Shown one piece after another: positions 359 through 21,158 of a stretch of DNA of 21,158 nucleotides. The position numbers were made by a program, and so were the translations under genes. How positions within the stretch are numbered: the stretch's first letter is position 1; every line of letters begins with the position of its first letter. A model generated the notes under the pieces. It had not been told where the DNA came from. It saw nothing but the letters and a program-made list of their open reading frames with translations, and searched no databases. The stretch comes from Candidatus Aenigmatarchaeota archaeon (lineage in GTDB: Archaea; Aenigmatarchaeota; Aenigmatarchaeia; Aenigmatarchaeales; JACQIB01): assembly GCA_046760225.1 (NCBI GenBank), contig JBHIDR010000011.1, positions 1 through 21,158 of the forward strand. Reading direction: 5' to 3'.

Positions 359-1561
359 ATGATTGAGCTTCTCTTTGCAGTCATGTTGGGCTTGTTTGTT
401 GGCTGTGCCTGCGGCATATTCCCCGGCCTCCACCCAAACAGCACAATTCCCATCATACTTGGCTTCTCGTTCCTTTTCCAGCCCCTTGAAGCAGCAATTA
501 TCCTGATAAGTGCTGGTGTCACAAACTCGTTTGTTAGCTTCATACCAGCTGTCTTCCTGGGTGCTCCAGAAGCAGATTCAGCACTCTCTGTTCTCCCTGG
601 CCACAGGCTCCTCTTGCAGGGAAGGGGGTTTGAGGCAGTCAGGCTCACTGTGGTGGGCGGCCTTGGCGCTACATTTCTTGCAATACTGCTGTTGCCTGTT
701 TTTTCCTTGACCATACCATCTGTGTACCATCTTATACGGCCTGTCCTGCACTGGATTTTATTGGCCCTTGTGTTCTACATGATAATGGGTGAGGAGGGTT
801 TCAAGAACAAGATTCTGGCTGCTTATGTTTTCCTCTTGTCAGGCATGCTGGGCTATGTTGCAATTAATTATATGTCTGTTAAGGAAATTCTTTTCCCCCT
901 CCTTACAGGACTTTTCGGCCTTCCTCTTCTGTTGCTGTCAGTTAAAAGAAATGTCAAGCTGCCTGAAAGCTTTTCATTTGAATATGAAAGAATCAAGAGA
1001 AGATCAGTAATATCTGGTATTGGAATAGGGAGCCTGGCAGGCATTATAGCAGGCCTCCTCCCAGGATTGGGAAGCTCGCAGGCAACAGTGATTGCACAGG
1101 AAGCAGTTGGGCACAAGTCTGACAGGAATTTTCTCATAGCAATCGGCGGTGTGAACACCTCGGATGTCATCTATTCCCTTCTTGCGCTCTATCTCATAGG
1201 CAATGCCAGGAGCGGTATTGCTGTTGCAGTTGGTAACATGATTGCTGTTGGTTTCAACCATGTGCTGCTTTTCCTTTGCGTTATTGTTGCATCTGCAGGG
1301 GTTGCTGCTTACATAACAATAAGGATGACCAGGAAGTTTGTTTTCTTTCTGAAAAGAATGGATTACAGAAGGCTTTGCCTGCATATCTTTGTTCTCTTGT
1401 TCGCGCTCGTGGCAATCTTTTCAGGCTCCACAGGCCTGGTTGTTGCACTGGTCGCGCTCTCCATTGGCCTGATTCCGAACATTGTTGGTATCAAGAGGAG
1501 CCATTGTATGGGCTGTCTGCTATTGCCAACAATATTGCTCTTCGCCGGACTCAGCTTTTAG
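359..1561 (+). CDS. Archaeal TctA-like (tripartite tricarboxylate transporter family, COG1784-like) membrane protein
   Basis: About 400 aa, very hydrophobic. Motifs GIFPGLHPN, FIPAVFLGAP, SVLPGHRLLLQGRG, GLLPGLGSSQA and GNARSG, with an internal two-fold repeat. ATG at 359 is preferred over GTG at 335. Confidence 0.85.
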   Translation: MIELLFAVMLGLFVGCACGIFPGLHPNSTIPIILGFSFLFQPLEAAIILISAGVTNSFVSFIPAVFLGAPEADSALSVLPGHRLLLQGRGFEAVRLTVVGGLGATFLAILLLPVFSLTIPSVYHLIRPVLHWILLALVFYMIMGEEGFKNKILAAYVFLLSGMLGYVAINYMSVKEILFPLLTGLFGLPLLLLSVKRNVKLPESFSFEYERIKRRSVISGIGIGSLAGIIAGLLPGLGSSQATVIAQEAVGHKSDRNFLIAIGGVNTSDVIYSLLALYLIGNARSGIAVAVGNMIAVGFNHVLLFLCVIVASAGVAAYITIRMTRKFVFFLKRMDYRRLCLHIFVLLFALVAIFSGSTGLVVALVALSIGLIPNIVGIKRSHCMGCLLLPTILLFAGLSF

Positions 1562-4500
1562 GAACATCCACAAATTTTCCCAGTGAGCCATTGTAAGAGA
1601 AGTATATTTGTGAACCGCATTCAGGACAGGAACCGCTCAGCGGAGGTTTTTTCGAGAACCATCTGCACTTCTTGCATGAAACACCATCGCTTCCCTTGAG
1701 TGTTGTGTTCTCAGGTGATTCTGGTCTGGAATTGAGTATGTCCATGAGGCTCTTCTGCCTGCATCCTTCCAGCAGCTCTGTCCTGGTTATGTTGCATGCC
1801 TCAAATATCCTTTCCAGCGGCGGCAGCACCTGGTTCTCTATGTAATACTGTGAATCAATTTCCAGTCCCCTTTCTTTTACATACTTTGGGTCCTCTGCTC
1901 TTTTGGACAATAGGTCATTTCCCTTGATTATAACATAGCCCAGTCGCTCGCCAACAAGGTTCTGTCTTGTTGGGTCCCTCTTCCTTATTTTCTTTGCAAG
2001 CTCAACATGCGGCTGTATCCCGTCATATGCATCAAGCGACTTTGTTATTCCTTTCACAACTGTCAGCTTCTCCAGAGGCACTTTGCCGTTCGCCAAATCC
2101 TTCAACACAGCCCTCACATGCTGTGAGGCCTTGTTTATGTCCTGTTCCTTGAGAACAATTTCAAGCACTTCCTTCATTGTGTCAGATGTCAGCTCGCACC
2201 AGTCCCTTCTTATTGTCTCTATTCCTTTCATCAGTATCCTGTCCTTCCACTTGTTCCCCTTCTTGTCAAATGCCCAGCCAGCATATCTCTTCTTTGTCAG
2301 AATAAGAAACGTCCTGAATATCCTTTCAAAGCTGAGCTTGAGCCCGGGCAGCCTTTCTGTCACGAACCCCGAGATCTCGTTTCCTGTCTGCTCAGCAAGG
2401 TCAAGGTTTAGTATGTTCGTCTTTATGAAGATCGAGTCAGTATTATGAAGCAGCACCTGGCCGCAGCTGTCCACAAACATATGAGAACCCTCAACCTCTA
2501 AATCGTACACATGTCCTTCATAGGGTTCTTCAATTGTTTTTGTAATGACCTTTGCATTGTGTTTTGTGGTCGTTGTTATTGTATAGGCCTTTTTGGGCTC
2601 CCTGTATTTGATTGAGTACTTCATTCCTAAGAGCGTAAGAAGCAGACTGAAACCGCTTGCAAGCCTGAGTGATTTTGTAGTATAGCTGAAATTCCTCCTT
2701 TTGTACTGCTCTGTATAAGGCAGCTTCCTGTTCATGAACTTACGGGAACCGTCGCCAAGAACCATGTTATCCAGTACTATCCTCTGGTATCTTTCTGGTA
2801 AATTGAATACAAAATCCGGCAAGTATTTGCTGTCGCTCCTTTGCCCGCACAGCATTTTGAAAAAAACAGCTGCAAGCGAGTTCATCACCTGAAGCTTGTG
2901 TGTATTGTCCTTGTATTCAATACGCCTTCCATTGGAGTTTAGCCTTCTTATGCCCGGCATTGACGGTATTATAGACGCCTTGCAGTTTCTGAAAAGCAAT
3001 TTATAATCTTCTTTTAATTGTTTTAGCCATTTGATGTCACTCGATGCTATGCTTGCTCCCATGCGTGATTCAGTTGTTTCAGGTGTTGAGCTGCTGCCCT
3101 CTGAAACATAAGCGCCTATCAGCCTGCACAGCGCCTCCATCTCAGGTGTACCGGCATGTATCATTCTCTTTAGCATTACCGGCTCTTTCCTGTTCATCCA
3201 GCCGAAATAAAGAAGGCCGCCGTCAGTATGCACCATTGCTGTTTTCTGTCTTCCTTTGTAGAGGCTTTCCGTCCTGTATCCGCACAGGTGCTCAAAAAGG
3301 TCCAGTTCCTTGATGTTTCTTCCCCTGGGAATGCCCTCGACCCTTATCATGCGCCTTCCGCCCATGTCTTCTGGTCTTGTTTCTTCCAGTTCGCCGTTGC
3401 TTAGTGTCATTATGGAATGGTCCTGCGTTACAGCTGTCTCACCGAACTTCTGCACAACCCTGAATACCTTCTTGTCTGTTTTGTGGCGTATTACCTTTTT
3501 GATGGGCATCCAGCATGCTGTATGGGTCTTTGGGTCTACTGTAAGCGCCTTATAACCGCTTACACGCGCAGCTTCTTTGGGCCCTATATTGAAGACAGAG
3601 CCTGAGAATTCATTGAAAAGTTCTTCTATGTTCTTTGTTCTTATCGTCCCGCTCTCGTCCATGACTGTCACGAACCTTTCTGCTGTCACACTGTCCCCAT
3701 AAAGCACTTTCACAGGATGGTTGTCCTCAACAAGCTTCTTTGTCTTCATTATGTTTTCCCTTCCAAAGCTTGTTATTGAGTTTGCTATGTCCATCACATA
3801 GAGCCTTGACCTCATATAGCCAGTATAGCCATAGAGCGAGTTTGCCATTGTCTTCAGTGCGAGCTGCTTTGCGTTCAGTACCCTTGTTCTCTCAGGGTCT
3901 GTCTCCTTCCTTATCTGTTTCTTTACTTCTATTCTCGTGTCTATCATTTCACGTATGACCTTTGGAAGGACACCTTCCCTGGTTTCTTTTTTGACAAACT
4001 TGGTGCCATAGGGCGTCACAATATAATCAGAAGGTCCTTCATCAAGCAGTATTGTTGTCGGGCATATGTTGAACAGATTTATTATTGAAGGATAAAGTGA
4101 CTGGAAATCCAGAACAAGCGTGCACCCGGATGCATGCAGACCAGCAATAGGGTCGAGCACAAGCGCACCAGTAAGCCCTACTTTTTCCCTTTCAACCCTT
4201 CTCTTGCTTATTTCTGCTGCATCAGGCCTGCAGGGCATGAGTATCTTCCTCTTCTTGAACTCGTGCAGGATTTTGTTTTCATGCCTCTGTGCCTGGCCCC
4301 CGAATATGTCCTGCAGCAACAGCCCTGATACTTTTGAGAGCTCAAAGAACTTGTCAAGCATTCCCTTGTCAAGCACCAGCCTCAATGCCAGTTCAGAGTC
4401 CTTTCTGCAGTAGTCAACTATTTTCTTTACGCCCTTGAAGCCGCTGTTCCACAGTTCTCTCATCTCCTTTGGCCCGCCAACATCCATCTTTTCCATTCCA

Positions 4501-5465
4501 AGCATTTCCCTTGCAACAGTGGCAAGGTTGTACCTCCTGAAGCTTACCCATGGGTCTCTTTTCAGTATCTCAAAGGGGTCAACAATTACCCTACCACTTA
4601 TTGTTGTGACATATCCGCCCATTATTTTTCTCATGAACGGCCTCTTCTCAGTTCTCCCGAAGTCCCGCGGCACATTCAGGGCCTCCATCCTCTTCAGGAG
4701 ATAGGGCATGTCAAAGTTGTTGATGTTGTATCCTATCAGAACATCAGGGTCATAATCCTTTATCACATCAAGGAGTTTTTTCAGCATTTCCTCCTCATTT
4801 ACGCATTCAATGCAGTCGCTGTCAACCCTTATTGGCTTTGCAAGTATTGCCATGCTCTGCTTTCCCTTGTATGCCTGACTGAACCTGAGGGATATCATTA
4901 TTATCGGGTCCTTGTCAGGCTCAGGCATCCTGTCCTCGTTTGTTATGCATTCTATGTCCAGGGCAAGGTAGCGCAGCGGTATGTTCTCTGATCTGTCCAC
5001 TGGCTTTATGCTCTTTGCTTCGAATGCCCTGCACTTGACGGTGCTTGTCCTTGCAGGCATTCCCTCAACCTCGGCCCAGCCCATGCCAACAAGGCCATGG
5101 TCAGCCATGAACCTGTATATGAAAAGTATGTCTGCCTCATACGGTGTGCCGTATTTTTTTGTTATTTCCCTCATCTCTGGCACCTTTGAAGGGTCATTGC
5201 CTGTTATCTTCAGGACCCTTACTGGTTTCTCCCTGTACCCGATCGGAAGGAACATCTCCTCTGTTTGGGCAGATATCTCATGGCTCTTTTTTAGCTCCTC
5301 GATTATCTTGCCGAAATCGCTCTCCTTTGCATGGACATAGAAATATGGCCTTAGCTTGTCATAAAAAACACAGACCGTTGAGCCGTCCACCGCCTTGCCG
5401 AAAAGTCTTATCAATGGCTTGTTGTTCAGAATCGTGTAGTCGCAACCAAGAATCTGTATTTGCAT
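1551..5465 (-). CDS. polB: Family B DNA polymerase with proofreading exonuclease, intein-containing; about 887 aa after splicing
   Basis: Exonuclease motifs LALDIEC, GYNINNFDMPY and YCRKDS. Polymerase motifs LDFQSLYPSII, KTMANSLYGY and YGD|TDS (split by the intein), plus KKRYAG and KGIETIRRDW. The C-terminus has QKSLMDIL and CKKC...CPEC. Confidence 0.98.
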   Translation of the reverse strand: MQIQILGCDYTILNNKPLIRLFGKAVDGSTVCVFYDKLRPYFYVHAKESDFGKIIEELKKSHEISAQTEEMFLPIGYREKPVRVLKITGNDPSKVPEMREITKKYGTPYEADILFIYRFMADHGLVGMGWAEVEGMPARTSTVKCRAFEAKSIKPVDRSENIPLRYLALDIECITNEDRMPEPDKDPIIMISLRFSQAYKGKQSMAILAKPIRVDSDCIECVNEEEMLKKLLDVIKDYDPDVLIGYNINNFDMPYLLKRMEALNVPRDFGRTEKRPFMRKIMGGYVTTISGRVIVDPFEILKRDPWVSFRRYNLATVAREMLGMEKMDVGGPKEMRELWNSGFKGVKKIVDYCRKDSELALRLVLDKGMLDKFFELSKVSGLLLQDIFGGQAQRHENKILHEFKKRKILMPCRPDAAEISKRRVEREKVGLTGALVLDPIAGLHASGCTLVLDFQSLYPSIINLFNICPTTILLDEGPSDYIVTPYGTKFVKKETREGVLPKVIREMIDTRIEVKKQIRKETDPERTRVLNAKQLALKTMANSLYGYTGYMRSRLYVMDIANSITSFGRENIMKTKKLVEDNHPVKVLYGDSVTAERFVTVMDESGTIRTKNIEELFNEFSGSVFNIGPKEAARVSGYKALTVDPKTHTACWMPIKKVIRHKTDKKVFRVVQKFGETAVTQDHSIMTLSNGELEETRPEDMGGRRMIRVEGIPRGRNIKELDLFEHLCGYRTESLYKGRQKTAMVHTDGGLLYFGWMNRKEPVMLKRMIHAGTPEMEALCRLIGAYVSEGSSSTPETTESRMGASIASSDIKWLKQLKEDYKLLFRNCKASIIPSMPGIRRLNSNGRRIEYKDNTHKLQVMNSLAAVFFKMLCGQRSDSKYLPDFVFNLPERYQRIVLDNMVLGDGSRKFMNRKLPYTEQYKRRNFSYTTKSLRLASGFSLLLTLLGMKYSIKYREPKKAYTITTTTKHNAKVITKTIEEPYEGHVYDLEVEGSHMFVDSCGQVLLHNTDSIFIKTNILNLDLAEQTGNEISGFVTERLPGLKLSFERIFRTFLILTKKRYAGWAFDKKGNKWKDRILMKGIETIRRDWCELTSDTMKEVLEIVLKEQDINKASQHVRAVLKDLANGKVPLEKLTVVKGITKSLDAYDGIQPHVELAKKIRKRDPTRQNLVGERLGYVIIKGNDLLSKRAEDPKYVKERGLEIDSQYYIENQVLPPLERIFEACNITRTELLEGCRQKSLMDILNSRPESPENTTLKGSDGVSCKKCRWFSKKPPLSGSCPECGSQIYFSYNGSLGKFVDVPKS
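2442..3692 (-). mobile_element. Intein (417 aa) with LAGLIDADG homing endonuclease, inserted in PolB motif C (pol-c-type site)
   Basis: Starts with SVTAERFV right after VLYGD and ends HVYDLEVEGSHMFVDSCGQVLLHN before TDS. Block B is VTQDHSIM. LAGLIDADG-like blocks are LIGAYVSEG and VLDNMVLGDG. Removing it restores YGDTDS. Confidence 0.96.
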
Positions 5466-5488: not shown

Positions 5489-6331
5489 TTAAACTGTTTT
5501 CGGTATGTCCCTTATGTCCCTGGTCTCTAAATCTATCTCCACTGCCCTGTGTTTTGGCAGGCCTATGATTGTTGTTCCCTTGTAGTTCTTGGTAAAATGC
5601 TCGGTTGTTGTGGTTATGAAGATATCAGGAACAGGGTCTATCACATCATTCGGTGGCTTGTTCAGGTGCCTTCTCTTTAACAGCTCCAAGGGAACATCTT
5701 TCTCATTTATCCCGAGCTCCTTTGCAGCCTTTTTGTGGTCAGCCACATGCACAAGCACCAGCACTCCACAGCATTCATAGAACCTTGTGCCTTCAACCAG
5801 AATGTGCTTGCCTGTTGTTATTTTCATTGGGAATCTGGCAGGGCTCCTCAGGCCTGTGTCAGGAAATACAATCTTTTCAGCATAGAGCGTGTTGTTGTTT
5901 ACCCTTCCTACTGCCCCAACAACATCATCATCAAGGAGCTTTATGTCTGTGACAAGTCCCATGCTTCCTGTTGGGTCCTCTATCATATTGCCCCCTTTCA
6001 TCCCTATCACAGCCGAATGCCCCTTTGCGTTCCTTATTGAGACCGGGTTCTTGAGCTCGATCTTGTTCATCAGCAGTGCCTGCAGCTCCTTGTACCTCTG
6101 CGCATAAAGCCCCACCATGTCATGCACGCTGTAGTGTGTTGGATTTTTCAGCTCCTTGGCAATTGTTATTTGCATGCACATCTCCTCAGCCTCTCTCTTT
6201 TTTAGAACAAGCGGCTTCTCTTTCATCCTGCCCAACTTCTCAAAAACGAGCGCCGCCCTTTTTTCATCCTTTAGGAACTCAAGTGCATCAGGCTCAAGCA
6301 TTATACCCAGTTCCAGTATCTTCTTCAGCAT
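5489..6331 (-). CDS. Truncated DP1 (PolD small subunit)/B-subunit-like protein, predicted catalytically inactive
   Basis: DP1-like segments YAQRYKELQALL, VIGM...IEDPTG...LLDDDVVGAVG...IVFPD (OB-fold region) and LLKRRHL...VIDPVPDIF...YKG...IDLET. Only 280 aa, with none of the DxH, GDxxD, GNHD or GHxH metal motifs. Confidence 0.75.
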   Translation of the reverse strand: MLKKILELGIMLEPDALEFLKDEKRAALVFEKLGRMKEKPLVLKKREAEEMCMQITIAKELKNPTHYSVHDMVGLYAQRYKELQALLMNKIELKNPVSIRNAKGHSAVIGMKGGNMIEDPTGSMGLVTDIKLLDDDVVGAVGRVNNNTLYAEKIVFPDTGLRSPARFPMKITTGKHILVEGTRFYECCGVLVLVHVADHKKAAKELGINEKDVPLELLKRRHLNKPPNDVIDPVPDIFITTTTEHFTKNYKGTTIIGLPKHRAVEIDLETRDIRDIPKTV

Positions 6332-6339: not shown

Positions 6340-7530
6340 TTAGAATATTTGTTCAAGAACATTCTTTACCTTTTTGGTTATGGGCCCGGAAAGCGCCAGG
6401 TTTATTGTTCTTGTCCTCCCGTACCTTCCCCTGGATATTACTTTTGTTGTTATTATGCCGAAAAGGTCTAGCTCTGCTATGAGGTCGCTTATCCTTCTCT
6501 GGGTAAGGCACTTTATTCCTGCTCTCCTGCAGTTCTCCTGGTAGAGCTCCAGCACATCCCCCGTGTTTATGTTCCTCTGCTTCTCAGAAAGCTGTATTAT
6601 TGAATAAAGCACAGCCTTGCTCTGTTTTGGCTGTGCCTTTATTGTCTCAAGTGTCCTGTCCATGTCTATTTTCTCTTCAGCATGGTCAACATGCTTTATG
6701 CTTATTGCCTCATCACCCTGCCTTTCAGCAATCTCAGCCGACACCCTCAGAAGATCAAGCGCTCTTCTTGCATCACCATGCTCCTGTGCAGCAAGTGCAG
6801 CACATTTCTCTATTACACCATCCCCAACTGTTTCTTCTCTAAATGCTATTTCAGCCCTTGCCTTGAGTATGTCCCTGAGCTGCATTGCATTGTATGGAGG
6901 AAAAATCAGCTCCTCCTCACTCAGGCTGCTCCTTACTCTGGGGTCAAGGCTGTTTATGAACCCCAGATCATTTGTTATACCTATTATGCAGACACGCGAG
7001 TTGTTCAGCTCCTCATTTATCCGCGTAAGGTTGTACAGCACCTCGTCACCTGTCTTCTTAACAAGAGTGTCTATTTCATCTATTATGAGTATGAGTGTCT
7101 GCTTTTCCTTGTCCAGAAGAGAGAAAAAGCATGAATATATCTGGTCAGTTGGCAGGCCAGTAAAAGGCACCTCCCTGCCAAGTTCCTTTGATAAATAAGC
7201 CAGCAACCTGTATTCTGTGTCAGCAGAATGCCTCATCTTGCAGTTCGCATATATCACTCTTATTCTGTGGCCATTAGCAGCCCTTCCAAGCTCACCTGTC
7301 ACCATTGTTGAAACAAGGGACTTGCCAGTGCCTGTCCTGCCGTATATGAATATGTTGCTGGGCCTGTCGCCTTTCAGAGCAGGAGCAAGTATCCTGGCTA
7401 TCTCCTCAATCTGCTTTTCCCTGTGCGGAATATTCCTTGGAGTAAATGATATTGAGAGCGCCCCCCTGTTAAGTATAATTGGTCTTGCATTCATGAATTG
7501 TGAAAAAAGCTCTTGTACTTTTTCTGACAT
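6340..7530 (-). CDS. cdc6: Orc1/Cdc6 replication initiator
   Basis: Walker A GRTGTGKS, Walker B IIDEID, LDPRVRSSL, FPPYNA, HGDARRALDLLR, and the winged-helix end SRGRYGRT. A GGTGA Shine-Dalgarno sequence precedes ATG at 7530. Confidence 0.97.
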   Translation of the reverse strand: MSEKVQELFSQFMNARPIILNRGALSISFTPRNIPHREKQIEEIARILAPALKGDRPSNIFIYGRTGTGKSLVSTMVTGELGRAANGHRIRVIYANCKMRHSADTEYRLLAYLSKELGREVPFTGLPTDQIYSCFFSLLDKEKQTLILIIDEIDTLVKKTGDEVLYNLTRINEELNNSRVCIIGITNDLGFINSLDPRVRSSLSEEELIFPPYNAMQLRDILKARAEIAFREETVGDGVIEKCAALAAQEHGDARRALDLLRVSAEIAERQGDEAISIKHVDHAEEKIDMDRTLETIKAQPKQSKAVLYSIIQLSEKQRNINTGDVLELYQENCRRAGIKCLTQRRISDLIAELDLFGIITTKVISRGRYGRTRTINLALSGPITKKVKNVLEQIF

Positions 7531-7559
7531 GATTATCACCCTTTTTTCTTCTGGAGTTT

Positions 7560-7950
7560 ATCTTTAACCATGTGAACATATTTATTGTTTTCTCCATGTG
7601 AAACAAAGGGGTCAAAATGAAGTTGCATTAGAAATAAAGGGGTTCATATGAAAGGCGAAAATACGTTGATAACCGAAGAAATAGGGTGTTTTATGCCTTG
7701 TGAACATCTCCCGTTCTATGTGAAACCAGAGAACTTCATTTTAACTTCATAAATTACCATATAACAATGTTATAATTATCTCCATAAGCAGTTTTTTCCA
7801 CCTGAAATCCCACCCCATGCTTTCCTATAAAGAAAATAAATAATAGAAATAAGAAAGAAAACATACCCCTACTTCCTATAACAATGTTATATATTATTAT
7901 AAACACACAATCTTATCTACTAACATGGGTTCGACAAGAAACCATGGGGC
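7560..7950. other. Probable replication origin (oriC) with ORB-like repeats and AT-rich unwinding tracts
   Basis: Non-coding stretch of about 400 bp upstream of cdc6. TCCATGTGAAACAAAGGGG (7593-7611) and TGCATTAGAAATAAAGGGG (7624-7642) match the archaeal ORB core plus G-string pattern. Further copies lie at 7714, 7796 and 7930, with weaker inverted ones at 7813 and 7866. AT-rich tracts lie at about 7737-7780, 7826-7862 and 7877-7903. Confidence 0.85.
7760..7891. repeat. Two identical copies of the 15-bp palindrome TATAACA-A-TGTTATA (7760-7774 and 7877-7891)
   Basis: Read directly from the sequence: 7-bp inverted arms with a 1-nt spacer, and starts 117 bp apart. Confidence 0.9.
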
Positions 7951-7951
7951 C

Positions 7952-8692
7952 CTACACACCACTAAAGTTCTGTTTCAGTGTTTCAAGAAGAACCTTTACA
8001 TCACTTCCTTTTGAAACAGCAAGGGGTATGCCTTCTATTTCAGCTATTCTCTTTGCAAGCTCATCAACATTCTCGCTCCTGTTGCCATGCAATACCACAA
8101 GCCCTGGTTTGAGGTTTGTTACTTTGAGCGCAACCATGCTGCTCTTGCCCCTGTGCGCACCAGTAAAGATCAGGGCCCTTTCACTTGTTAACCCATAAAG
8201 CTTGACCAGCTCCATTGGCGGAAGCTCTATTATTGCCTTCAGGCTGTCAATAACAGTATAACCATACAGCTTGCCCTCATTGCCCCCTCTTGTTACAAAG
8301 TTGGCTGAAAGCGACTTGCAGAAGTCCTTTGTTGATACAGGGGATGAGAACTCCTTCAGGTCAAGCACAGCATCAGAAAGCGCAGCCTTTGTTGGGAATG
8401 TTGAGAATTCCTTTATGACCTTGCCACCTACTTTTTCATCAAGCGCAATCATGGCGTCAACTATTCTCTTTATTACCTTTATCCCAGGGCTCTTCCTCCT
8501 GCTGTTCTCATAATCACTTATAACAGAGGGCATTACCTTCATTTGTTCAGCAAGTGTTCTTTGTGGTATTTTGAAGATGTTCCTCCATTTCTGTATTGTC
8601 TTGCCAGCATCAGAACTCAGCACAATCTCACCAGCAATTCTTTTTGCAACAGATTCCTTTGCAAGAGCCTCTTCATTGACCATGACAATCAT
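7952..8692 (-). CDS. Archaeal XRE-family HTH transcriptional regulator (COG1709-like)
   Basis: RIAGEIVLS...GKTIQKWRNIFKIPQRTLAEQMKVMPSVISDYENSRRKSPG forms the HTH. The C-terminal domain has YGYTVIDS, LYGLTSERALIFTG and KPGLVVLHG. The start may be 8683. Confidence 0.88.
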   Translation of the reverse strand: MIVMVNEEALAKESVAKRIAGEIVLSSDAGKTIQKWRNIFKIPQRTLAEQMKVMPSVISDYENSRRKSPGIKVIKRIVDAMIALDEKVGGKVIKEFSTFPTKAALSDAVLDLKEFSSPVSTKDFCKSLSANFVTRGGNEGKLYGYTVIDSLKAIIELPPMELVKLYGLTSERALIFTGAHRGKSSMVALKVTNLKPGLVVLHGNRSENVDELAKRIAEIEGIPLAVSKGSDVKVLLETLKQNFSGV

Positions 8693-13162: not shown

Positions 13163-14239
13163 ATGGTTGATCCACGTGTTAAAAAACTTGCTGAAATACT
13201 GGTTGATTATTGTGTTTTCGTGAAGAAGGGCGAACGTGTGATAATAGATGGATCAGTTGAGGCATCTGACCTCATAAAAGAGATATACAGACTTGTGATA
13301 AAACGTGGTGCATACCCATGGGATGACATATCAATCCCGGGGTTAGGTTATATATTCTATAAGAATGCCTCCAAAGAACAGCTGAAAAAATATCCTAAGA
13401 TATGGGAATATGTTGTAAAGAGGTCTCAGAAATACATAGGCATAGGCTCCCCAATAAACACGCGCGAATTCTCGAACATAGACCCCAAGAGGATAGCAAT
13501 AAGACAGAAGGTCACGCGGCCCATAACAGACTACATAGTCAATGCAAGACCAAAGATATACCGCGTTACCCTAGATTACCCAACACCTGCTCTTGCACAG
13601 GACGCTGAGATGAGCATGGAAGAATATGAGGACTTTTTGTTCAGTGCATGCCTGCTTGACTGGAAAAAGCTCTCAAAGAGACTGAAGAGGCTACAGAAAA
13701 TACTGAACAGAGGCAAGACAATCAGGATTGTTGGCAAGGACACAGACATTTCCATGAACATATACAAGAAGTCTTTTGTTATAGATGATGGTCATGAGAA
13801 TATGCCAGGAGGAGAAATATTCTGCGCACCTGAAAAGTATTCTGCAAACGGTCATATACGCTTCACCTATCCTGCAATAAGGCAAGGAGTTGAAGTCACC
13901 AACATCTATCTTGAGTTCAAGAAAGGAAAGGTTGTAAAGGCAACAGCAGACAAGAACCAGAAGTTCCTCAGGCAGATGATTGCAATGGATGCTGGCTCTA
14001 AATACCTCGGCGAACTGGGAATAGGAATGAACCCCAAAGTAACCAAGTTCACAAAGAACCTGCTCTTTGATGAAAAGATAGGCGGCACAATACACCTTGC
14101 ACTCGGAATGGCTTACAAGGAATGCGGCGAGCCAAACAAATCAGCACTCCACTGGGACATTGTCAAGGACTTGCGCAAAGGTGGAAAATTAATCTTGGAC
14201 GGAAAGACAATCCAAAGAAACGGGAAATGGTTAGTGTAA
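13163..14239 (+). CDS. Thermophilic metallo-aminopeptidase, M29 family (AmpS/AmpT-like)
   Basis: DPRVKKLAEILVDY, AQDAEMS, NMPGGEIFCAP, LGELGIG, LFDEKIGGTIHLALGMAY and SALHWDIV; GAGGTG Shine-Dalgarno sequence before ATG at 13163. Confidence 0.95.
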   Translation: MVDPRVKKLAEILVDYCVFVKKGERVIIDGSVEASDLIKEIYRLVIKRGAYPWDDISIPGLGYIFYKNASKEQLKKYPKIWEYVVKRSQKYIGIGSPINTREFSNIDPKRIAIRQKVTRPITDYIVNARPKIYRVTLDYPTPALAQDAEMSMEEYEDFLFSACLLDWKKLSKRLKRLQKILNRGKTIRIVGKDTDISMNIYKKSFVIDDGHENMPGGEIFCAPEKYSANGHIRFTYPAIRQGVEVTNIYLEFKKGKVVKATADKNQKFLRQMIAMDAGSKYLGELGIGMNPKVTKFTKNLLFDEKIGGTIHLALGMAYKECGEPNKSALHWDIVKDLRKGGKLILDGKTIQRNGKWLV

Positions 14240-15499
14240 TTTTTTCTTGAGGTCTTTGAGTGCTTCAGGTAGAGAGAGCGGATTCTTCTTGTCCTTTACC
14301 TTTTCGTATGCCTGCTTGCCCAAACAGTTGACAAGTTTTATTCCAAGCTTCTTACATGCTCTTTCAAGTGCAACATAGCTTTCTGCTGTTGGTTTGAAAT
14401 AGCAGTAATACTTTTTATACTTCTGCGACTTCAGATAGTTTTCAATTCTTTTCTGGTTGACCTTTATGTACAGCTTCTTTATCTCCCTTGTCTCTTCCCA
14501 TTCTGGCCAGTCATACTTGTTGAAGGGATAATGATCAACAAATTCGTAAGGTATCACTCCTGGTGAGCTTATTGCAATCAAGTGCAACCTTGGCCTTATT
14601 TTTAATTTGTCTATTGCTGAAAATATTGCCTTGTGTAGTTTTGAGTGGAAATATGGTTTCCTGTATGCGCATGTAATGAAGAGAGCAATATCATTCTTTT
14701 CCGGCCGCTCATAGAATCTTGAAAAATAATCATGCCATACAATATAGAAGGGATGTACAAGCTCTTTCTTTGTCGCACCCCTGATAAAGGGCTGCTCATG
14801 AAACCTTGGTATGAATGCGAAATTATCAAACTCCTTTTCACAATCCTTATACGGTTTTGTTAATTTATCAAACTCTTTTCTGTCAAGTGGCTCCCATTTG
14901 CCACTTACCCACATGTTATAAAGCGGCGCTCTTGAGTGTGGAAAAACATTTATCAGAACAATGCTGTCTGAATAATTCCTTGCAAACCCAACAGATTTCT
15001 TTAGGCTTTTCTTGCGGTCCTTTACCCAGGGAAGGCCCACCATCAGATATGTTCTCAGCCCGCATTTGTTTCTTTTCAATGTCTCTGCTGCCCTAACATA
15101 ATCCTCAGCAATGAACCCCTTTTTATATTTCTTTAATATCTTGTCGTCAGCGATCTCAAGACCAATTGCAACCGTAAGCTTCACTCCTTTGAAATCTGTT
15201 AGATTTTCATCTGTGATGAATTCTGGTCTGCTTTCTATTACTAGTTCTTTTATACCCCCCTGCATGCATTTCTGCGCAACATACCTTCTTACCATTCTGG
15301 GAAACTGCTTGTCATCCAGAAAACTTCCGCTTGCAAATATCTTGAGCCTTTTTACTTTTTTTATTTTCCTGAACTTATCATCAATAGCCTTCTTTAGCCT
15401 GTGTATCTGGGGTGGTGGGCCAACAAGCTTTCCCCAGCCGCATCCAAAACATTCTCCCCATGCGCATTTCCCACCAGAGAGTATTATTGTCCTTTCCAT
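14231..15499 (-). CDS. Fusion of a RaSEA-like radical SAM domain and an ArcS-like (DUF5591) domain; putative archaeosine biosynthesis enzyme
   Basis: The N-terminal part has CAWGECFGC, KIFASGSFLD, IESRPEFI, VAIGLE, KGF and RTYLM (RaSEA/TIGR01210-like). The C-terminal part has ALFITCAYRKPYFHSKLH, HLIAISSPGVIPYEF and YPFNKYDW (ArcS-like PCS.RKPY...SP.G.VP.E...YP...YD pattern). Confidence 0.82.
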   Translation of the reverse strand: MERTIILSGGKCAWGECFGCGWGKLVGPPPQIHRLKKAIDDKFRKIKKVKRLKIFASGSFLDDKQFPRMVRRYVAQKCMQGGIKELVIESRPEFITDENLTDFKGVKLTVAIGLEIADDKILKKYKKGFIAEDYVRAAETLKRNKCGLRTYLMVGLPWVKDRKKSLKKSVGFARNYSDSIVLINVFPHSRAPLYNMWVSGKWEPLDRKEFDKLTKPYKDCEKEFDNFAFIPRFHEQPFIRGATKKELVHPFYIVWHDYFSRFYERPEKNDIALFITCAYRKPYFHSKLHKAIFSAIDKLKIRPRLHLIAISSPGVIPYEFVDHYPFNKYDWPEWEETREIKKLYIKVNQKRIENYLKSQKYKKYYCYFKPTAESYVALERACKKLGIKLVNCLGKQAYEKVKDKKNPLSLPEALKDLKKKLH

Positions 15500-15535
15500 A
15501 GCAAAGACTTTAATTCAAGACTTTAAATAAATAAT
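15500..15535. promoter_or_regulatory. Putative 36-bp bidirectional promoter between the radical SAM fusion gene and thg1
   Basis: AAGACTTTAA occurs twice (15504-15513 and 15517-15526). TTTAAT at 15509 and TTTAAA at 15522 each lie about 25 nt from one of the divergent ATGs. Confidence 0.55.
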
Positions 15536-16321
15536 ATGAAAAAACCATGGCAAATCTACGGCTACCCCAAGCCCAAATCAGAGGCCTCGCGTGGAACACT
15601 ATCCCTGGTGGATTGGGAGATATATTCCGGGATAGAAATACCTGAAAAGCCAGTTTTCATAAGGCTTGATGGCTGGAAGTTCCATCCGCTTTGCAAGCGC
15701 CTGAAGCTGAAGAAGCCCTATGACAGGCGTTTTGCTTCTGCCTTGGTCAAGACATCAAAAGAGTTTTTCAAAACCTTCAGCTGTAACCTTGCCTACATAT
15801 TCTCAGATGAGATCAACCTCCTCTTTCTGAAAGTACCTGGCTTCAAGAGAATAGAAAAAATAGATTCTGTTTTTGCAGGAATAGCCAGCAGCACATTTTC
15901 AGAACTAATGAAGACAAAGGCATCTTTTGACTGCCGCTGCATCCCAATGCTCAAAAAATCAGACATAATTAATTATCTTATCTGGCGCCAGGCAGAGTGC
16001 TTCCGCAACCATAACAACAGCTGGGCCCACCAAATGCTAATGAAATCTGGCTTATCAGCAAGCCGTGCACAGAAAAGACTATCAGGCATGAACACAGCCC
16101 AGATACAAAAGTTGGTCAAAGAAAGGTTCAACCTCGACCTCTTTGCAACCCCAGCATGGCAGAGAAGCGGAATTCTCCTTTACAAGGAAAAGTATTTGAA
16201 GGAAGGCTATGACCCAATAAAAAAGAAAAAGGTCAAGGTTTTCCGCTTCAAGGTCAAGGAAGACTGGTCTCCGCCCGACTTCAGGGACAAAGGCAAAAAA
16301 TTTATAAATAGCTTTCTCTAA
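15536..16321 (+). CDS. thg1: tRNA(His) guanylyltransferase Thg1-like protein (3'-5' polymerase)
   Basis: IRLDGWKFH, AYIFSDEINLLF, RIEKIDS, FDCR, YLIWRQAECFRN and PAWQRSG. Confidence 0.94.
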   Translation: MKKPWQIYGYPKPKSEASRGTLSLVDWEIYSGIEIPEKPVFIRLDGWKFHPLCKRLKLKKPYDRRFASALVKTSKEFFKTFSCNLAYIFSDEINLLFLKVPGFKRIEKIDSVFAGIASSTFSELMKTKASFDCRCIPMLKKSDIINYLIWRQAECFRNHNNSWAHQMLMKSGLSASRAQKRLSGMNTAQIQKLVKERFNLDLFATPAWQRSGILLYKEKYLKEGYDPIKKKKVKVFRFKVKEDWSPPDFRDKGKKFINSFL

Positions 16322-16329: not shown

Positions 16330-16722
16330 ATGTGCGATTATAAAAAAGCAGTTATCTCAGGTGTGATATCCTATGCAATATTGTTCCTGATAATATCAGC
16401 ACTGATGGGAACACCGCTCTGGACAAGTGGGTACATCAACTACATAAATCTCATAATAGTATTCATCGTTGTATTCCTTGTGGCCCAGAAATATTATTTC
16501 AGAGGCATCAAACCCAAGGCGAACGAGGGTCTGGTGTTAGGAATAATCATGGCAATAGTTGCTTTCTTAATAGAGATACCAGTGATGGCATATGGATTTG
16601 CAGCTGACATGGGAATGAACTGGTTCACACAGTGGAACATACTCACAGGATACATCCTAACAATAATAGCAGCACTATTAGCGTCAAAGACACTTGGGAA
16701 AACCACAAGAAAGAAAAAGTAA
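16330..16722 (+). CDS. Small membrane protein of unknown function, about 4 TM helices
   Basis: 130 aa with four hydrophobic segments and a basic tail; GAGGA Shine-Dalgarno sequence; starts 8 nt after thg1. Confidence 0.8.
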   Translation: MCDYKKAVISGVISYAILFLIISALMGTPLWTSGYINYINLIIVFIVVFLVAQKYYFRGIKPKANEGLVLGIIMAIVAFLIEIPVMAYGFAADMGMNWFTQWNILTGYILTIIAALLASKTLGKTTRKKK

Positions 16723-16756
16723 GGCCTTTATATTTTCTTTTTTCTTTATTCTTTTA

Positions 16757-18439
16757 ATGCTTGAACTCATAGACAGGGACGCAGGAGGAAGAATATCAAG
16801 ATGGGAGATAGGCAAGCACAAGATAACCTTGCCCAATATCTGCATTGTAATCAATCCTAACAGGATGCTGATCAAACCAAGAGATATGAAAAAATACGGC
16901 GCAGAAATAATAATCACAAATTCTTACATAATACAGAAGCACGAGAATCTGAGAAAGCAGGCAGTAAAGGGCATACACCGCTTTCTTGGTTGGGATGGAC
17001 CAGTCTATACAGACAGCGGAACATTCCAGATGTATTCGCAGAAGGTAAAGGGGATCGATCCTGAGAAGATAATAGAGTTCCAGAACGCAATCAACTCAGA
17101 CATTGAAACCCCTGTTGATGTCTTTACCTTGCCTGATGACACAAAGGCAGTTGCAAAGAAGAAGCTGAATGAAACAACCAGACGTGTAAAACAGGCCAGA
17201 AAATCAGTTGTAAATCACCTTGCCGGACCCATACAGGGAGGAATGTCCCTTGACCTCCGCGCAGATGCAAGCAGAAAGATTGCAAAGATAAACCCGGACG
17301 TGTTCGCAATCGGAGGAATAGTTCCTCTGATGGAACAGTACATGTTCAAGGAGTTGTGTGACATTGCTCTTACATGCAAGAAGAACCTGCCCGCGCATCG
17401 ACCATTACACGCTTTTGGTGCAGGACACCCCATTACATTTGCTATTCTAACAGCATTTGGTTGTGATTTGTTTGATAGCGCGATATATCACATAGCTGCC
17501 CGCCGTGGCGGATACCTTACAATCAACGGCACATACCACCTTGATGACCTGAGGGAATTCCCATGCTCATGCCCGGTTTGTGCACACTCAACACCAGATA
17601 AGCTAAAACAAATGAAAAAGGAAAAACAAGAAGAATTTCTCACCAAGCACAACCTTCACATCACATTCTCTGAACTCAGGACAGTGCGCCAGGCCATAAG
17701 AGAGAACTGGCTCTGGGAACTCGTGCAAATAAGGGCACGCGCCCATCCATCACTGCTTGAAGCATTAATGTTCTGCCTAAAGAAGTACGGGAATTACCTG
17801 GAAAAACTCGATCCCATAACAAAGAAATCAGCGTTTTTTTATTCAGGAGAAGAGAGCAAGTATAGACCTGAAGTAAGAAGGGCAAGAGCTTGGCTAAAAA
17901 GAGTAAAGTCAAGAAGAACCTTCATCAAAGAGCCTTTTGGTAAGGTGCCCCTTCCTCTGCTCGGGGTTTATCCCTTTGGCCAGAGCCTTGTGCCAGGTTT
18001 CAAGGAACCAAAAGGCAAAGTAAAACCAAAAGAGATTATTGCAGCAACAGTCCAGTATCAATATGGTTCAAAACTAAGATTAAAGAAACCAAGAATAGAA
18101 GTTTCAAAAAGAACAGGAAGGATAAGAAGAATATGGAAAGGAAAAACACTTGTTGGAACAATCAGGTCTTATGATGGCCTATTCTTGCCCACAAGGGAAG
18201 GCGCAAAACTTGTGAAAATGAAAAAGGTTTTTGTTGAAGACAAGGAGGTTGCAGAATACATAAAGAAAGGAAAGAGCATGTTTGCAAAGTTCATAAGCAA
18301 GGCAGATGACATAATTCCTGGCGAGGAAGTTGCAGTTTACAGGAGCAAGGAGCTTCTTGCTGTTGGCCGTGCCCTGCTTAACAAAAATGAAGTCAAAGAA
18401 ATGGAGCGCGGAATTGCGGTTAAGACCAGAGCCACCTGA
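16757..18439 (+). CDS. tgtA: Archaeosine tRNA-guanine(15) transglycosylase (ArcTGT)
   Basis: IIITNSYII, YTDSGTFQ, GPIQGG, AIGGIVPLME, HAFGAGHP, DLFDSA, the Zn site CSCPVC...HNL, RARAHP and a C-terminal PUA-like domain. The real start is most likely ATG at 16757. Confidence 0.96.
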   Translation: MLELIDRDAGGRISRWEIGKHKITLPNICIVINPNRMLIKPRDMKKYGAEIIITNSYIIQKHENLRKQAVKGIHRFLGWDGPVYTDSGTFQMYSQKVKGIDPEKIIEFQNAINSDIETPVDVFTLPDDTKAVAKKKLNETTRRVKQARKSVVNHLAGPIQGGMSLDLRADASRKIAKINPDVFAIGGIVPLMEQYMFKELCDIALTCKKNLPAHRPLHAFGAGHPITFAILTAFGCDLFDSAIYHIAARRGGYLTINGTYHLDDLREFPCSCPVCAHSTPDKLKQMKKEKQEEFLTKHNLHITFSELRTVRQAIRENWLWELVQIRARAHPSLLEALMFCLKKYGNYLEKLDPITKKSAFFYSGEESKYRPEVRRARAWLKRVKSRRTFIKEPFGKVPLPLLGVYPFGQSLVPGFKEPKGKVKPKEIIAATVQYQYGSKLRLKKPRIEVSKRTGRIRRIWKGKTLVGTIRSYDGLFLPTREGAKLVKMKKVFVEDKEVAEYIKKGKSMFAKFISKADDIIPGEEVAVYRSKELLAVGRALLNKNEVKEMERGIAVKTRAT

Positions 18440-21158
18440 CCTTCTTTTTTCTCTTGAGCATCTTTCTTCTGGAAACCAGTAGCCCAACACCTATTACTAT
18501 AACAACACCAGCAAGCACTGCTTCGGTTGTTGGGAATATGAAATAGCCTGTTGGCCCACTTACTGACGCTTCTGTTATTTCAGGCATATCTGCAATAATT
18601 GCAAAGTATGAGAACCCTTCTGATGTTGAAGAGTATGTGTAAGAATCCTCTTCAGGAGCCTCATATGAAACAAGCACGATTAAATCCTGCATATCAAATG
18701 CAGATGATGATGCTTTCGTGGTCCAAAGCTCGAACAGATAAAGCACATCATTTGGTCCTATTGACACTTTGCCTGTGTCCGGATCCATTACAGAAGAAAG
18801 AAATGATGCTATCTCTGGTTGATCTCCGAAGGGCTTGAAGTAAGGCGGCGTGTCCCCGTTCCTAAGCACTATGACGTTCTTGCCACCATCTTCTGTACTG
18901 ATTGTAAGTCGACCCTTTGCCTTTATGTGCACTTTGTCACCGCTGCTGACATCAAACTCTTGGGAATAATATCCTGCCTCTTTATCGGTGTTGACATTGG
19001 CTCCGCCAAACAACTCTTCATAACCTCCACCCCCTATCATGCCCCATGCATAAACAGGAATGTTTTCGCCTCTGGCGCTGAACGCAGAGCCAAGCACCTT
19101 GATTTTTATCTTCCCACTCTTCTTGACAGTCACCTCATCATCATTCACATCAAAATAGTCACCATCATCGACTTCTCTTTCTGTTGGCAGCTTTTCCCAT
19201 TTGCCCCTGTTCCAGCGCACGAGCTTTATTTTATCAGGATTAAGTCCGTTTTTCTCAAGCCATTCCCTGTCAACAACGAACTTTATCACAGCTTCTTTTA
19301 TTTCCTCATCTGTAACGTTCTTGTCTATCTTGAGGTACTGGTAAACCGCCCCATGCTTCCTGTCCACATCAGCAGGCTTCTCAGGCAGCTTCTTTACCAC
19401 TATGTGGATTCCTGGTACCCTCTTTGAAGGTGTTATTACAATCTGAACCACTAGCTGTTTTTCATTGGGCAGGTCAACTGAAACGCTCTCGTTCTCATCT
19501 ACCTCAGGTATGTATATTTCAGTTGAGTTGTCATCCTGGTTCTCCTTTACTTCCGGCTCTTCTTCTGTTTCATTCTTGCTCGTCTTGTTCCCAGGGGTGA
19601 CTATTTTGTTAAGATCGTCATCTCCTCCCGAATCATCACCGTCATCAGGCGGGCCCCGTGTAGTTAGTGGAAGCCAGTCCTTCCAGTGCGGAAGGTCTGA
19701 GTCACCAAGGCCATCACCATTACTGTCATAGCCATCATAGTCGTGCCAGAAGTTTCCTCCCATCCAGCTGCCACCGATTATGTTGTTGCCCTGGACCTTG
19801 GTTATGTTCCATCTGTTGTTCTGTTCGAGGTATGTTGCATTACAGTGGAAATAAACATCATACTCATTATCAAAGTAGTTGTTCCATATACTATTGTTGA
19901 TTGTATTGTCGCTTTTGAACAGAAGGCCGTAGTGCCCTCCGGTAAAATAATTGCCTGTTATGTTGTTTCTTTTTGTAGGAGCAGTGCCACCAAGCCGCAG
20001 CCCCCTTGTACAGTTGAACCTGTTGTCTGAAATAATATTGTCACTGCCCTTCCACTTGATGCATGTATCAATGGCAGTAGGATTTTTTGAATAGAACTTA
20101 TTTCCCGAAATCACTGACCAAGCAGCCTGTGATGTCATCCAGTTGTCAATACCCTCGCTGGCCGTGAAGTTGATTGTATTGTTGATTATGTTCAATTTTG
20201 GTGCGGTTGGGTTCTGTGACTGTGGATAAATGCTTCCATTCACTATAGTGCTGCCACGCAGCGTGTTGTTTTCCTTATAGCCATACTGGAAGTAGACAAC
20301 TCCAAGAACATAGCTGTCTCTGACCACGTTATCAGACCCTGACATGTTCAGACCGGAGTATGATGTGATGTCCCATACATCATTCCGGCCACCAGCTATG
20401 CGGGGCTCTAAGGACGGGAACGTGAGGTTCCATGCCATGCTGCTGTTCGGCTCAAAAATGAGTTTATTCATGCTCATATCGCTTATGTTGTTGTAGAGCC
20501 CTCCCCTCATCTCAATTTCATCAAGTGTATTATCCGATATAGCTGCATTCGAAGAACCGCTCAGGTAGATTTTCTTGTTGCTTCCTGTGAAGGTGTTTGT
20601 GTTGAGCGTGACCTTGGATGCGCCTGTTATGCTCACAGCCAGGCCCCCAGAGCCAATTGTGTTGCCTGTTATTATTGCTTCATCTCCTGTGAAGGTAACA
20701 GCGTTGTTACAGTCAGATAACGTGTTGCCTGTAAGCGAGAACAGGTCTGAGCTTGATGAGATTATACAGTTGTTGAGTGTTGAGTCCTTTATTCTGACAA
20801 TGCTATTTGTGCTTGCGCTCAGGCTCCATGGGCTTGATTCTGCATCAACAACAGAGTCCTGTATGTACAGCTTTCCGTACTGCTTTACACTGACTGTGCC
20901 GAAAGTCAGGTTGCAGTTCGTGAAGTTGTAGGTCCTTCCTGCCTCAATATCAAGCGTGCTGAATGTCATGTCGCAGTTCTCATAAGCACTAGGAGCAATT
21001 ATTATCGGTGCATAGTCATTGTTGTGCGGGAGCATTGTATCGCCAATCCCGTCACCATCATTATCATCACCAAGATAGTTCCACCACCAGTTTCCTGCAG
21101 TCCAGTTGCCCCCTATGATGTTCGTGCCCGCTGTCTTTGTTATGTTGAAAATGTTGTC
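18420..21158 (-). CDS. Large cell-surface protein, 5'-truncated: parallel beta-helix (NosD/CASH-like) modules, PGF-pre-PGF-like domain and C-terminal TM anchor
   Basis: The frame stays open to the window edge (DNIFNITKTAGTNIIGGNWTAGNWWWNYLGDDNDGDGIGDT). It has Asn-rich beta-helix repeats, VYQYLKI...IKFVVDREWL...LVRW...WEKLPT...GFSYFAI, then PTGYF, a hydrophobic helix and a basic tail. Confidence 0.88.
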   Translation of the reverse strand, partial: DNIFNITKTAGTNIIGGNWTAGNWWWNYLGDDNDGDGIGDTMLPHNNDYAPIIIAPSAYENCDMTFSTLDIEAGRTYNFTNCNLTFGTVSVKQYGKLYIQDSVVDAESSPWSLSASTNSIVRIKDSTLNNCIISSSSDLFSLTGNTLSDCNNAVTFTGDEAIITGNTIGSGGLAVSITGASKVTLNTNTFTGSNKKIYLSGSSNAAISDNTLDEIEMRGGLYNNISDMSMNKLIFEPNSSMAWNLTFPSLEPRIAGGRNDVWDITSYSGLNMSGSDNVVRDSYVLGVVYFQYGYKENNTLRGSTIVNGSIYPQSQNPTAPKLNIINNTINFTASEGIDNWMTSQAAWSVISGNKFYSKNPTAIDTCIKWKGSDNIISDNRFNCTRGLRLGGTAPTKRNNITGNYFTGGHYGLLFKSDNTINNSIWNNYFDNEYDVYFHCNATYLEQNNRWNITKVQGNNIIGGSWMGGNFWHDYDGYDSNGDGLGDSDLPHWKDWLPLTTRGPPDDGDDSGGDDDLNKIVTPGNKTSKNETEEEPEVKENQDDNSTEIYIPEVDENESVSVDLPNEKQLVVQIVITPSKRVPGIHIVVKKLPEKPADVDRKHGAVYQYLKIDKNVTDEEIKEAVIKFVVDREWLEKNGLNPDKIKLVRWNRGKWEKLPTEREVDDGDYFDVNDDEVTVKKSGKIKIKVLGSAFSARGENIPVYAWGMIGGGGYEELFGGANVNTDKEAGYYSQEFDVSSGDKVHIKAKGRLTISTEDGGKNVIVLRNGDTPPYFKPFGDQPEIASFLSSVMDPDTGKVSIGPNDVLYLFELWTTKASSSAFDMQDLIVLVSYEAPEEDSYTYSSTSEGFSYFAIIADMPEITEASVSGPTGYFIFPTTEAVLAGVVIVIGVGLLVSRRKMLKRKKKVRWLWS

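Follow-up and report, generated by a model that had tools for sequence, protein, structure and literature searches.

Can the last two steps of archaeosine (G+) synthesis, which are the work of the protein pair ArcS and RaSEA, be housed in one polypeptide? The question is raised by a 21,158-nucleotide stretch of DNA from a Candidatus Aenigmatarchaeota archaeon (assembly GCA_046760225.1, contig JBHIDR010000011.1, positions 1 to 21,158), hereafter the window. The gene in question (14231..15499, minus strand) encodes a 422-aa protein in which a RaSEA-like radical S-adenosylmethionine (SAM) domain is followed by the C1 domain of ArcS. We refer to it as the fusion. A sequence-only reading of the window had proposed such an in-frame join, and the join is real: the open reading frame (ORF) list and the translation gave an unbroken frame from the ATG at 15499 to the stop codon at 14231-14233, and Pfam and NCBIfam matched both parts. 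Judged from its domains and conserved residues, the gene probably encodes a single-chain archaeosine synthase, a pared-down and covalent form of the ArcS-RaSEA complex.

The radical SAM domain (approximately residues 1-232; 14804..15499, minus strand) is the counterpart of the RaSEA core. Pfam Radical_SAM matched residues 10-158 with an E-value of 2.6e-12 (47.7 bits, cut-off 29.5). As the sequence-only reading had led us to expect, RaSEA was the best radical SAM family in NCBIfam: model TIGR01210 aligned residues 4-182 with its positions 17-207 of 313 (E 1.5e-31, 109.8 bits), whereas the runner-up, TIGR01212, reached 2.5e-9 and the ELP3 model 1.9e-7. In BLASTP, the canonical RaSEA P0166 showed 29% identity over residues 5-198 (E 2e-30). 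The cysteine triad of the iron-sulfur (Fe-S) cluster, C12-X4-C17-X2-C20 (CAWGECFGC), was read from the translation at 15440..15466 on the minus strand.

The second half of the protein is the ArcS C1 domain, a Rossmann-like insertion also termed DUF5591 (approximately residues 236-390; 14330..14794, minus strand), as delimited by the Pfam, ArcS-model, BLASTP and 2q07 matches. The predicted DUF5591/ArcS relationship held, with Pfam DUF5591 covering residues 256-390 (E 9e-15) at 55.3 bits against a cut-off of 26. The canonical ArcS P0251 was 36% identical over residues 239-366 in BLASTP (E 5e-19). The ArcS-like motifs named in the sequence-only reading occur in the translation: the C1 signature TCAYRKPYFHSKLH (TC-AYR-KPY-FH-S-KL-H) at 14633..14674 and a second conserved block SPGVIPYEFVDHYPFNKYD (SPGVIPYEF..YPFNKYD) at 14510..14566, both on the minus strand. 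The second block aligned with SPLGLVPRE..YPAAFYD of the canonical ArcS P0251. Two reports give the ArcS C1 motif as PC-X3-KPY-X2-S-X2-H (bioRxiv 10.1101/2023.04.13.536721; PMC5699537), and the fusion keeps every position of it save for a P to T change.

From the two ArcS models, the C1 segment alone was matched by this half: residues 235-368 aligned with positions 207-336 of 515 in NF053620, and residues 258-389 with positions 284-409 of 575 in NF040592. No TGT-like, TGT_C2 or PUA domain was detected in the fusion protein with Pfam and NCBIfam, which agrees with the earlier statement that its ArcS part has neither a TGT-like N-terminal nor a PUA domain, and the same libraries returned no recognisable RNA-binding domain. 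The place of the C2 and PUA domains of canonical ArcS is occupied by a 32-residue helical C-terminal tail (residues 391-422; 14234..14329, minus strand), to which AlphaFold2 (AF2) assigned helices at 395-401 and 411-421 and for which no Pfam or NCBIfam family match was obtained.

Residue conservation was assessed in 50 aligned homologues and in a further alignment of 27 rows. The cluster cysteines C12, C17 and C20 were invariant in all 50 sequences, as were K53, G58, D62, Q65, E89, G113, K127, Y151 and N184 in the radical SAM half and S286, S311, P313, G314, P317, P325, F326 and Y329 in the C1 half. The motif residues C277, K281, P282, Y283 and H289 were at least 90% conserved in the 50-row alignment; in the 27-row alignment C277, K281, P282, Y283 and S286 were invariant, whereas H289 was not. 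In the fusions the second C1 block runs on as YDWPEWEET, a family signature of their own in comparison with C1-only ArcS proteins. Additionally, we aligned ten fusions jointly with five canonical-type RaSEA proteins, four of which exceed the TIGR01210 cut-off, and one fusion of reverse order. In this joint alignment W14, C17, C20, G58, E89, G113, K127 and Y151 were invariant, and the fusion triad lined up with the CSW...GxCxxCG signature of canonical RaSEA. A separate observation concerns the 424-aa fusion homologue P0135, which has lost the C1 motif (it reads ...PESVRGSPTGSDLY... there) and kept the radical SAM triad; this divergent branch possibly reflects decay or a changed function of the C1 half.

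The database searches showed that the fusion is not a singular oddity. A one-genome-per-species scan recovered 134 relatives with the architecture of approximately 420-440 aa, so that the family is present in 134 species genomes, and among small-celled archaea the join is common. In a protein collection clustered at 90% identity, 235 clusters matched at E <= 0.001. The 120 matches listed of these 235 were full-length and collinear, 374-457 aa long and 46-99% identical; 116 of them carried PF04055 together with PF17884, and four carried PF17884 alone. Those of the listed homologues that are named have unspecific labels, such as 'DUF5591 domain-containing protein' and 'radical SAM protein', with 'archaeosine synthase' in some Joint Genome Institute (JGI) records. 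The nearest named relatives of the window fusion come from Aenigmatarchaeota and share 63-66% identity with it.

For the locus comparisons, we kept 80 loci from the 134 relatives and counted their groups by hand from the record labels. Altiarchaeota and kin contributed 21 loci, Aenigmatarchaeota 12 and other DPANN labels 17 (Nanoarchaeota 4, Micrarchaeota 4, Nanohaloarchaea 3, Nanobdellati 3, Woesearchaeota 1, Parvarchaeota 1, Iainarchaeum 1). Seven loci belonged to Thermoproteota and kin, including a 'Kor1' metagenome-assembled genome, Thermofilaceae, Culexmicrobium and Methanomethylicota, and one belonged to Asgardarchaeum. Four carried Euryarchaeota-type labels, one of them on a 2.3-kb contig, and 18 were unclassified.

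A gene of this kind might also arise when an assembly error, a frameshift or faulty gene calling joins adjacent genes, or as a decaying pseudogene, and proteins of the same subfamilies do occur unfused. The representative protein search gave 912 matches at E <= 0.001 (161 at <= 1e-10 and 29 at <= 1e-30), and hidden Markov models of both halves were applied to 150 listed representatives of the 912. This census, which includes some fragments among the unfused proteins and among those with radical SAM followed by C1, found the radical SAM domain only in 95 of the 150, C1 only in 35, radical SAM followed by C1 in 19, and the order C1 then radical SAM in one (P0151, 680 aa). Stand-alone C1 proteins of approximately 200-300 aa were among the representatives. 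However, a single complete ORF of 387-506 aa was present in 77 of the 80 independent loci, which span several phyla, and the other three were cut by a contig end; this recurrence excludes the artefact computationally. The junction between the halves itself holds conserved residues, among them P231, L247, H249 and W255. The AF2 model, built from the 50-row alignment, is confident throughout: it forms a single compact unit with a mean predicted local distance difference test (pLDDT) score of 94.2, a predicted template modelling (pTM) score of 0.88 and zero segments below pLDDT 50. We therefore give an artefact next to no credence. With both domains in 116 of the 120 listed homologues, 134 relatives and 77 complete ORFs, selection maintains the fusion as one entity. 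Since the catalytic residues of the two halves are kept throughout this large family, a single-chain archaeosine synthase is the most economical reading.

The compact and confident predicted fold also speaks for that reading. In the AF2 model, the radical SAM half shows a partial TIM-barrel pattern of strands and helices. Foldseek searches of the PDB with this half retrieved the radical SAM enzymes Mmp10, Elp3, MiaB, lipoyl synthase and queuine lyase 6p78, the last with a template modelling (TM) score of 0.68 on the target and a root-mean-square deviation of 3.6 over 238 columns; the second half retrieved 2q07 (AF0587) over 158 columns. A profile search of the PDB sequences returned 2q07 at 8.4e-15, Elp3 at 3.6e-14 and queuine lyase at 2.1e-13. 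Queuine lyase 6p78 is the closest solved structure over nearly the whole radical SAM half (profile positions 3-197). This enzyme cleaves a C-N bond, and its reaction, like that proposed for the fusion, takes place on a 7-deazaguanine side chain. In both sequence and fold, then, the radical SAM part of the fusion is related to an enzyme of 7-deazaguanine chemistry, which favours a single-chain archaeosine synthase; unlike the fusion, queuine lyase is bacterial, stands alone, acts on a free base and on another substrate, and has no C1 domain. Elp3 has the CX4CX2C spacing of the fusion (CPHGKCIFC) and a related barrel (phmmer 1e-6), but it contains a GNAT domain and modifies U34. No solved structure of RaSEA or of the ArcS-RaSEA complex was found by the sequence and fold searches of the PDB.

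Which substrate the fusion would act on is indicated first by its neighbourhood. The sequence-only reading had placed tgtA, the gene for ArcTGT, approximately 1.3 kb away, and this was borne out by TIGR00432 and Pfam. The ORF at 16694-18439 (plus strand) encodes TgtA, with 458.1 bits against the TIGR00432 cut-off of 350 and the Pfam domains TGT, TGT_C1, TGT_C2 and PUA. Its true start is likely the ATG at 16757 (M22), because homologues begin at MLELIDRDA, so that tgtA occupies 16757..18439 on the plus strand, divergent from the fusion gene and with 1257 nt between this ATG and the fusion start codon. By tblastn of the window proteins, tgtA was located within 10 kb of the fusion gene in 23 of the 80 loci, and in 15 of the 36 loci having at least 5 kb on both sides. 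It lay upstream and divergent in 20 of the 23 linked loci, as in the window, and the divergent gap was only 61-80 nt in L004, L006, L026 and L045. In the remaining three, tgtA had the orientation of the fusion gene and followed downstream of it, at a distance of 35 nt in L052 and L073, which are both from Thermoproteota. These arrangements vary from phylum to phylum.

This neighbour bears on a different proposal, namely that the substrate is not transfer RNA (tRNA) but a 7-deazaguanine in DNA, or the free 7-cyano-7-deazaguanine (preQ0) base or nucleotide that is later inserted or salvaged. Such a substrate would suit a protein in which no RNA-binding domain was recognised. The closest viral C1 relatives are C1-only proteins, found in eight phage or virus records, and the T. 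kodakarensis ArcS accepts a mononucleotide. Against the proposal stands the gene's conserved neighbour, which encodes a complete ArcTGT with the C1, C2 and PUA tRNA-binding domains, against which the DpdA model scored 24.9 bits with a cut-off of 200. Moreover, tblastn against a phage collection found the fusion in no virus; the eight records matched C1 alone, their matches spanned residues 236-417, and none covered 80% of the query. The fusion is instead a conserved chromosomal gene beside housekeeping genes (dnaG, cdc6, peptidases). We regard a substrate other than tRNA as improbable.

We then asked what else accompanies the fusion gene. Besides tgtA, neighbour clustering across the 80 loci showed lineage-specific synteny only, with dnaG, peptidase, cdc6, helix-turn-helix (HTH) and CBS genes in Aenigmatarchaeota, and in Altiarchaeota a gene of approximately 560 aa and of unknown kind upstream and a HisA/HisF-type gene downstream. 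A second RaSEA or ArcS gene was not detected by tblastn in the 10-kb flanks of the 80 loci, where three extra ArcS matches were tgtA itself, a paralogue. Within the 21-kb window, no further arcS, raSEA, queF-L or gat-queC gene was found (17 ORFs searched with Pfam, 13 with NCBIfam), and queC, queD and queE were not seen by Pfam among 18 neighbour ORFs from the most conserved clusters of the 80 loci. We put at about even the chance that DPANN, Altiarchaeota and some TACK and Asgard archaea have no archaeosine synthase other than this 422-aa chain, which would then perform both steps alone. One large neighbour cluster consisted of antisense ORFs of approximately 90-230 aa over the fusion gene (window 15111-15530, plus strand; loci L001-L079). 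These cluster because the sense strand is conserved, and they were therefore rejected as spurious.

Between the fusion gene and tgtA lies a Thg1-like gene (15536-16321, plus strand; Pfam Thg1 and Thg1C), which starts 36 nt from the fusion start on the other strand; the fusion, the Thg1-like gene and tgtA form a tRNA-maturation cluster in the window. The Thg1-like gene had no tblastn match in the 80 loci, and its position is therefore specific to the window. An ORF at 16330-16722 (plus strand) between Thg1 and tgtA encodes a hydrophobic 130-aa protein with no Pfam or NCBIfam match. It is overlapped by the long reading of tgtA from a TTG start and not by the reading from ATG 16757.

How would the chemistry proceed? 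In the proposed scheme, ArcTGT, encoded 1.26 kb away, would place preQ0 at position 15 of the tRNA. The C-terminal C1 domain would then form preQ0-Lys by adding lysine, through its epsilon-amino group, to the nitrile of preQ0. Finally, the radical SAM domain, with a [4Fe-4S] cluster on C12, C17 and C20 and with SAM, would cleave the lysine C-N bond to leave the amidine of G+. We infer these substrates and both chemical steps by analogy with the T. kodakarensis ArcS-RaSEA system, and the chain would presumably need no further subunit. In T. kodakarensis, PMC11298593 reports that ArcS transfers lysine to preQ0-15 and RaSEA converts preQ0-Lys to G+, that ArcS is active only when complexed with RaSEA, that lysine is the sole amine donor used, that a preQ0 nucleoside 5'-phosphate suffices as substrate of ArcS, and that ArcTGT does not co-purify with ArcS.

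The fusion shares with that system both catalytic modules, namely the C1 motif and the three-cysteine radical SAM core, and likewise the pathway partner ArcTGT. Because the T. kodakarensis ArcS works only in complex with RaSEA, a fusion makes sense: the complex that is obligate for lysine transfer in that species would be replaced by a covalent join that makes the association permanent. Acceptance of the preQ0 nucleoside 5'-phosphate implies that RNA-binding domains are dispensable for catalysis. A fusion that has none fits this biochemistry, and the same two-step chemistry is accordingly proposed in one chain.

Two suggestions of the sequence-only reading are weakened. One is that the fusion would define the minimal lysine-transfer domain: C1-only ArcS proteins of phages and some archaea (bioRxiv 10.1101/2023.04.13.536721) and the sufficiency of the 5'-phosphate are already in print. 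The other, reliance on ArcTGT for tRNA binding, was unsupported here; ArcTGT and ArcS of T. kodakarensis do not co-purify. A complex prediction of ArcTGT (560 aa) with the fusion (422 aa) scored 0.00, a value that counts neither for nor against binding.

Other, independent joinings of the two enzymes speak for a single-chain archaeosine synthase as well. In P0151 (680 aa), C1 is followed by a full-length RaSEA with its Cys-rich tail, and in P0218 (497 aa, probably a fragment) an ArcS C-terminus with a PUA-type domain is followed by RaSEA. A quick tree of C1 domains placed the reverse-order P0151 apart from the fusions with radical SAM first. Several rows of the small proteins in this tree are fragments and long branches meet, so we draw from it no order of fusion and fission. 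Longer fused forms of 740-2110 aa, for example with TgtA, were not found at E <= 1e-10, a negative that is weak evidence.

Several observations weigh against this assignment. At the level of whole families, the fusion stays below the RaSEA equivalog cut-off (109.8 versus 212.15 bits, TIGR01210) and misses both curated ArcS cut-offs (60.4 versus 600 and 48.2 versus 440 bits), while the canonical P0166 and P0169 scored approximately 353 bits against TIGR01210. Its cluster loop is CX4CX2C, whereas canonical RaSEA has 8 to approximately 45 residues after the first cysteine. The alignment stops at approximately position 207 of 313, so that the C-terminal third of the RaSEA model, some 100 positions, has no counterpart in the fusion. 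The Cys-rich segment HNCxxC...CxC, present in four of the five canonical-type RaSEA proteins, falls in this lost stretch, and in the fusion the C1 domain follows the barrel where RaSEA has its C-terminal region. Motif position 276 is T here and P in at least 90% of the family. Regarding the neighbourhood, the flanks of 57 of the 80 loci were without tgtA, many of them on short contigs, and 20 of the 21 Altiarchaeota loci had no tgtA nearby, the sole exception being L053 at 9.4 kb. Two published results point the same way: the C1-only ArcS2 of Vibrio phage nt-1 gave the deoxy form of archaeosine (dG+) in E. coli without RaSEA (bioRxiv 10.1101/2023.04.13.536721), and the M. jannaschii ArcS was reported to use NH4+, Gln and Asn in vitro (PMC11298593; PMC5699537).

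These last results imply that a C1 domain may form the amidine directly. On this account, the C1 half of the fusion would make G+ from preQ0-tRNA with ammonia, glutamine or asparagine, the lysine adduct would not be formed, and the radical SAM half would be structural or would perform a further 7-deazaguanine reaction, in which case the product might not be plain G+. Besides the dG+ obtained with nt-1 ArcS2 in a host that has no RaSEA and the amine donors of the M. jannaschii enzyme, the shortened state of the radical SAM domain, a sub-cut-off relative of RaSEA without its Cys-rich C-terminal segment, is in keeping with such a route. However, the Fe-S triad and the core radical SAM residues are invariant, which indicates catalysis rather than a scaffold, and the next radical SAM family has an E-value over 20 orders of magnitude poorer than that of RaSEA. 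Furthermore, in the one system studied, ArcS requires RaSEA and uses lysine only. We consider direct amidine formation unlikely, and retain the two-step, single-chain archaeosine synthase as the probable function.

The architecture is nevertheless distinct from that of the canonical pair, which consists of two proteins, 518 aa for ArcS (P0251) and 353-362 aa for RaSEA (P0166 and P0169), as opposed to one chain of 422 aa. The fusion is without the TGT-like N-terminal, C2 and PUA domains of canonical ArcS and without the longer cluster loop and the Cys-rich C-terminal segment of canonical RaSEA. The curated cut-offs place it outside both the RaSEA and the ArcS equivalogs, and it is missing parts that define each of them. 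In two canonical RaSEA proteins, P0178 and P0210, we observed a variable insertion of up to approximately 45 residues between the first cluster cysteine and GxCxxCG, which is unusual for the cluster loop of a radical SAM enzyme.

Compared with C1-only ArcS (nt-1 ArcS2, STSV2_16 and some archaeal genes), the fusion has the same DUF5591 core and the same absence of TGT-like and PUA domains; the C1-only proteins are devoid of a radical SAM domain, and those of viruses work together with DpdA on DNA. QueF-like and Gat-QueC perform the step from preQ0 to G+ in archaea without ArcS (bioRxiv 10.1101/2023.04.13.536721; PMC11298593; PMC5699537). They are not homologous to the fusion, and such domains were not found in it or in the scanned window ORFs.

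The remainder of the window is archaeal in content, with an intein-bearing family-B DNA polymerase, cdc6/orc1 and dnaG besides tgtA and the Thg1-like gene, and its G+C content is approximately 44%. The polymerase (1551-5465, minus strand; 1304 aa) carries its intein (Pfam Intein_splicing, residues 609-1008) between two DNA_pol_B stretches. An adjacent 280-aa ORF (5489-6331, minus strand) had no Pfam match and a weak match (42 bits) to positions 10-213 of 481 in the model of the small subunit of DNA polymerase II (PolD). The cdc6/orc1 gene (6340-7539, minus strand) lies beside an intergenic stretch of low G+C content (0.39 for 7001-8000). At 7563-7745, repeated TCCATGTGAAAC...AAAGGGGT elements and inverted repeats occur, which we take to resemble the origin recognition boxes (ORB) of a replication origin. 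At the other end, a protein of more than 900 aa (18420-21158, minus strand), open at the window end, combines beta-helix repeats of the NosD type with an acidic linker and, at its C-terminus, a hydrophobic anchor, and is therefore probably a surface protein.

A description of a radical SAM-C1 fusion was not found in the literature covered, which did not extend to three key papers and their supplements, so that priority is not excluded. C1-only ArcS and lysine transfer independent of tRNA architecture are already known from the works cited above, and a specialist would see in the fusion a logical 'Rosetta stone' and no great surprise. Its spread beyond Euryarchaeota and its value as a minimal model are real. 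It marks the catalytically essential parts of ArcS and RaSEA, and, as a compact single chain with a confident predicted fold, it is a practical object for the structure and mechanism of the conversion of a nitrile to an amidine via a lysine adduct. Hundreds of proteins that bear no label beyond 'DUF5591 domain-containing protein' or 'radical SAM protein' can also be annotated from it. If this chain is the sole archaeosine synthase in the groups that carry it and performs both steps, ArcS could dispense with its TGT-like, C2 and PUA domains and RaSEA with its C-terminal third, and the fusion would serve as a small single-chain model for a complex whose structure and mechanism are still unsolved. 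The distribution of the family suggests that DPANN archaea with their reduced genomes employ ArcS/RaSEA chemistry, as do Altiarchaeota and some members of the Thermoproteota and the Asgard archaea, all outside the Euryarchaeota in which the pathway was defined; the ArcS/RaSEA route would then reach well beyond that group.

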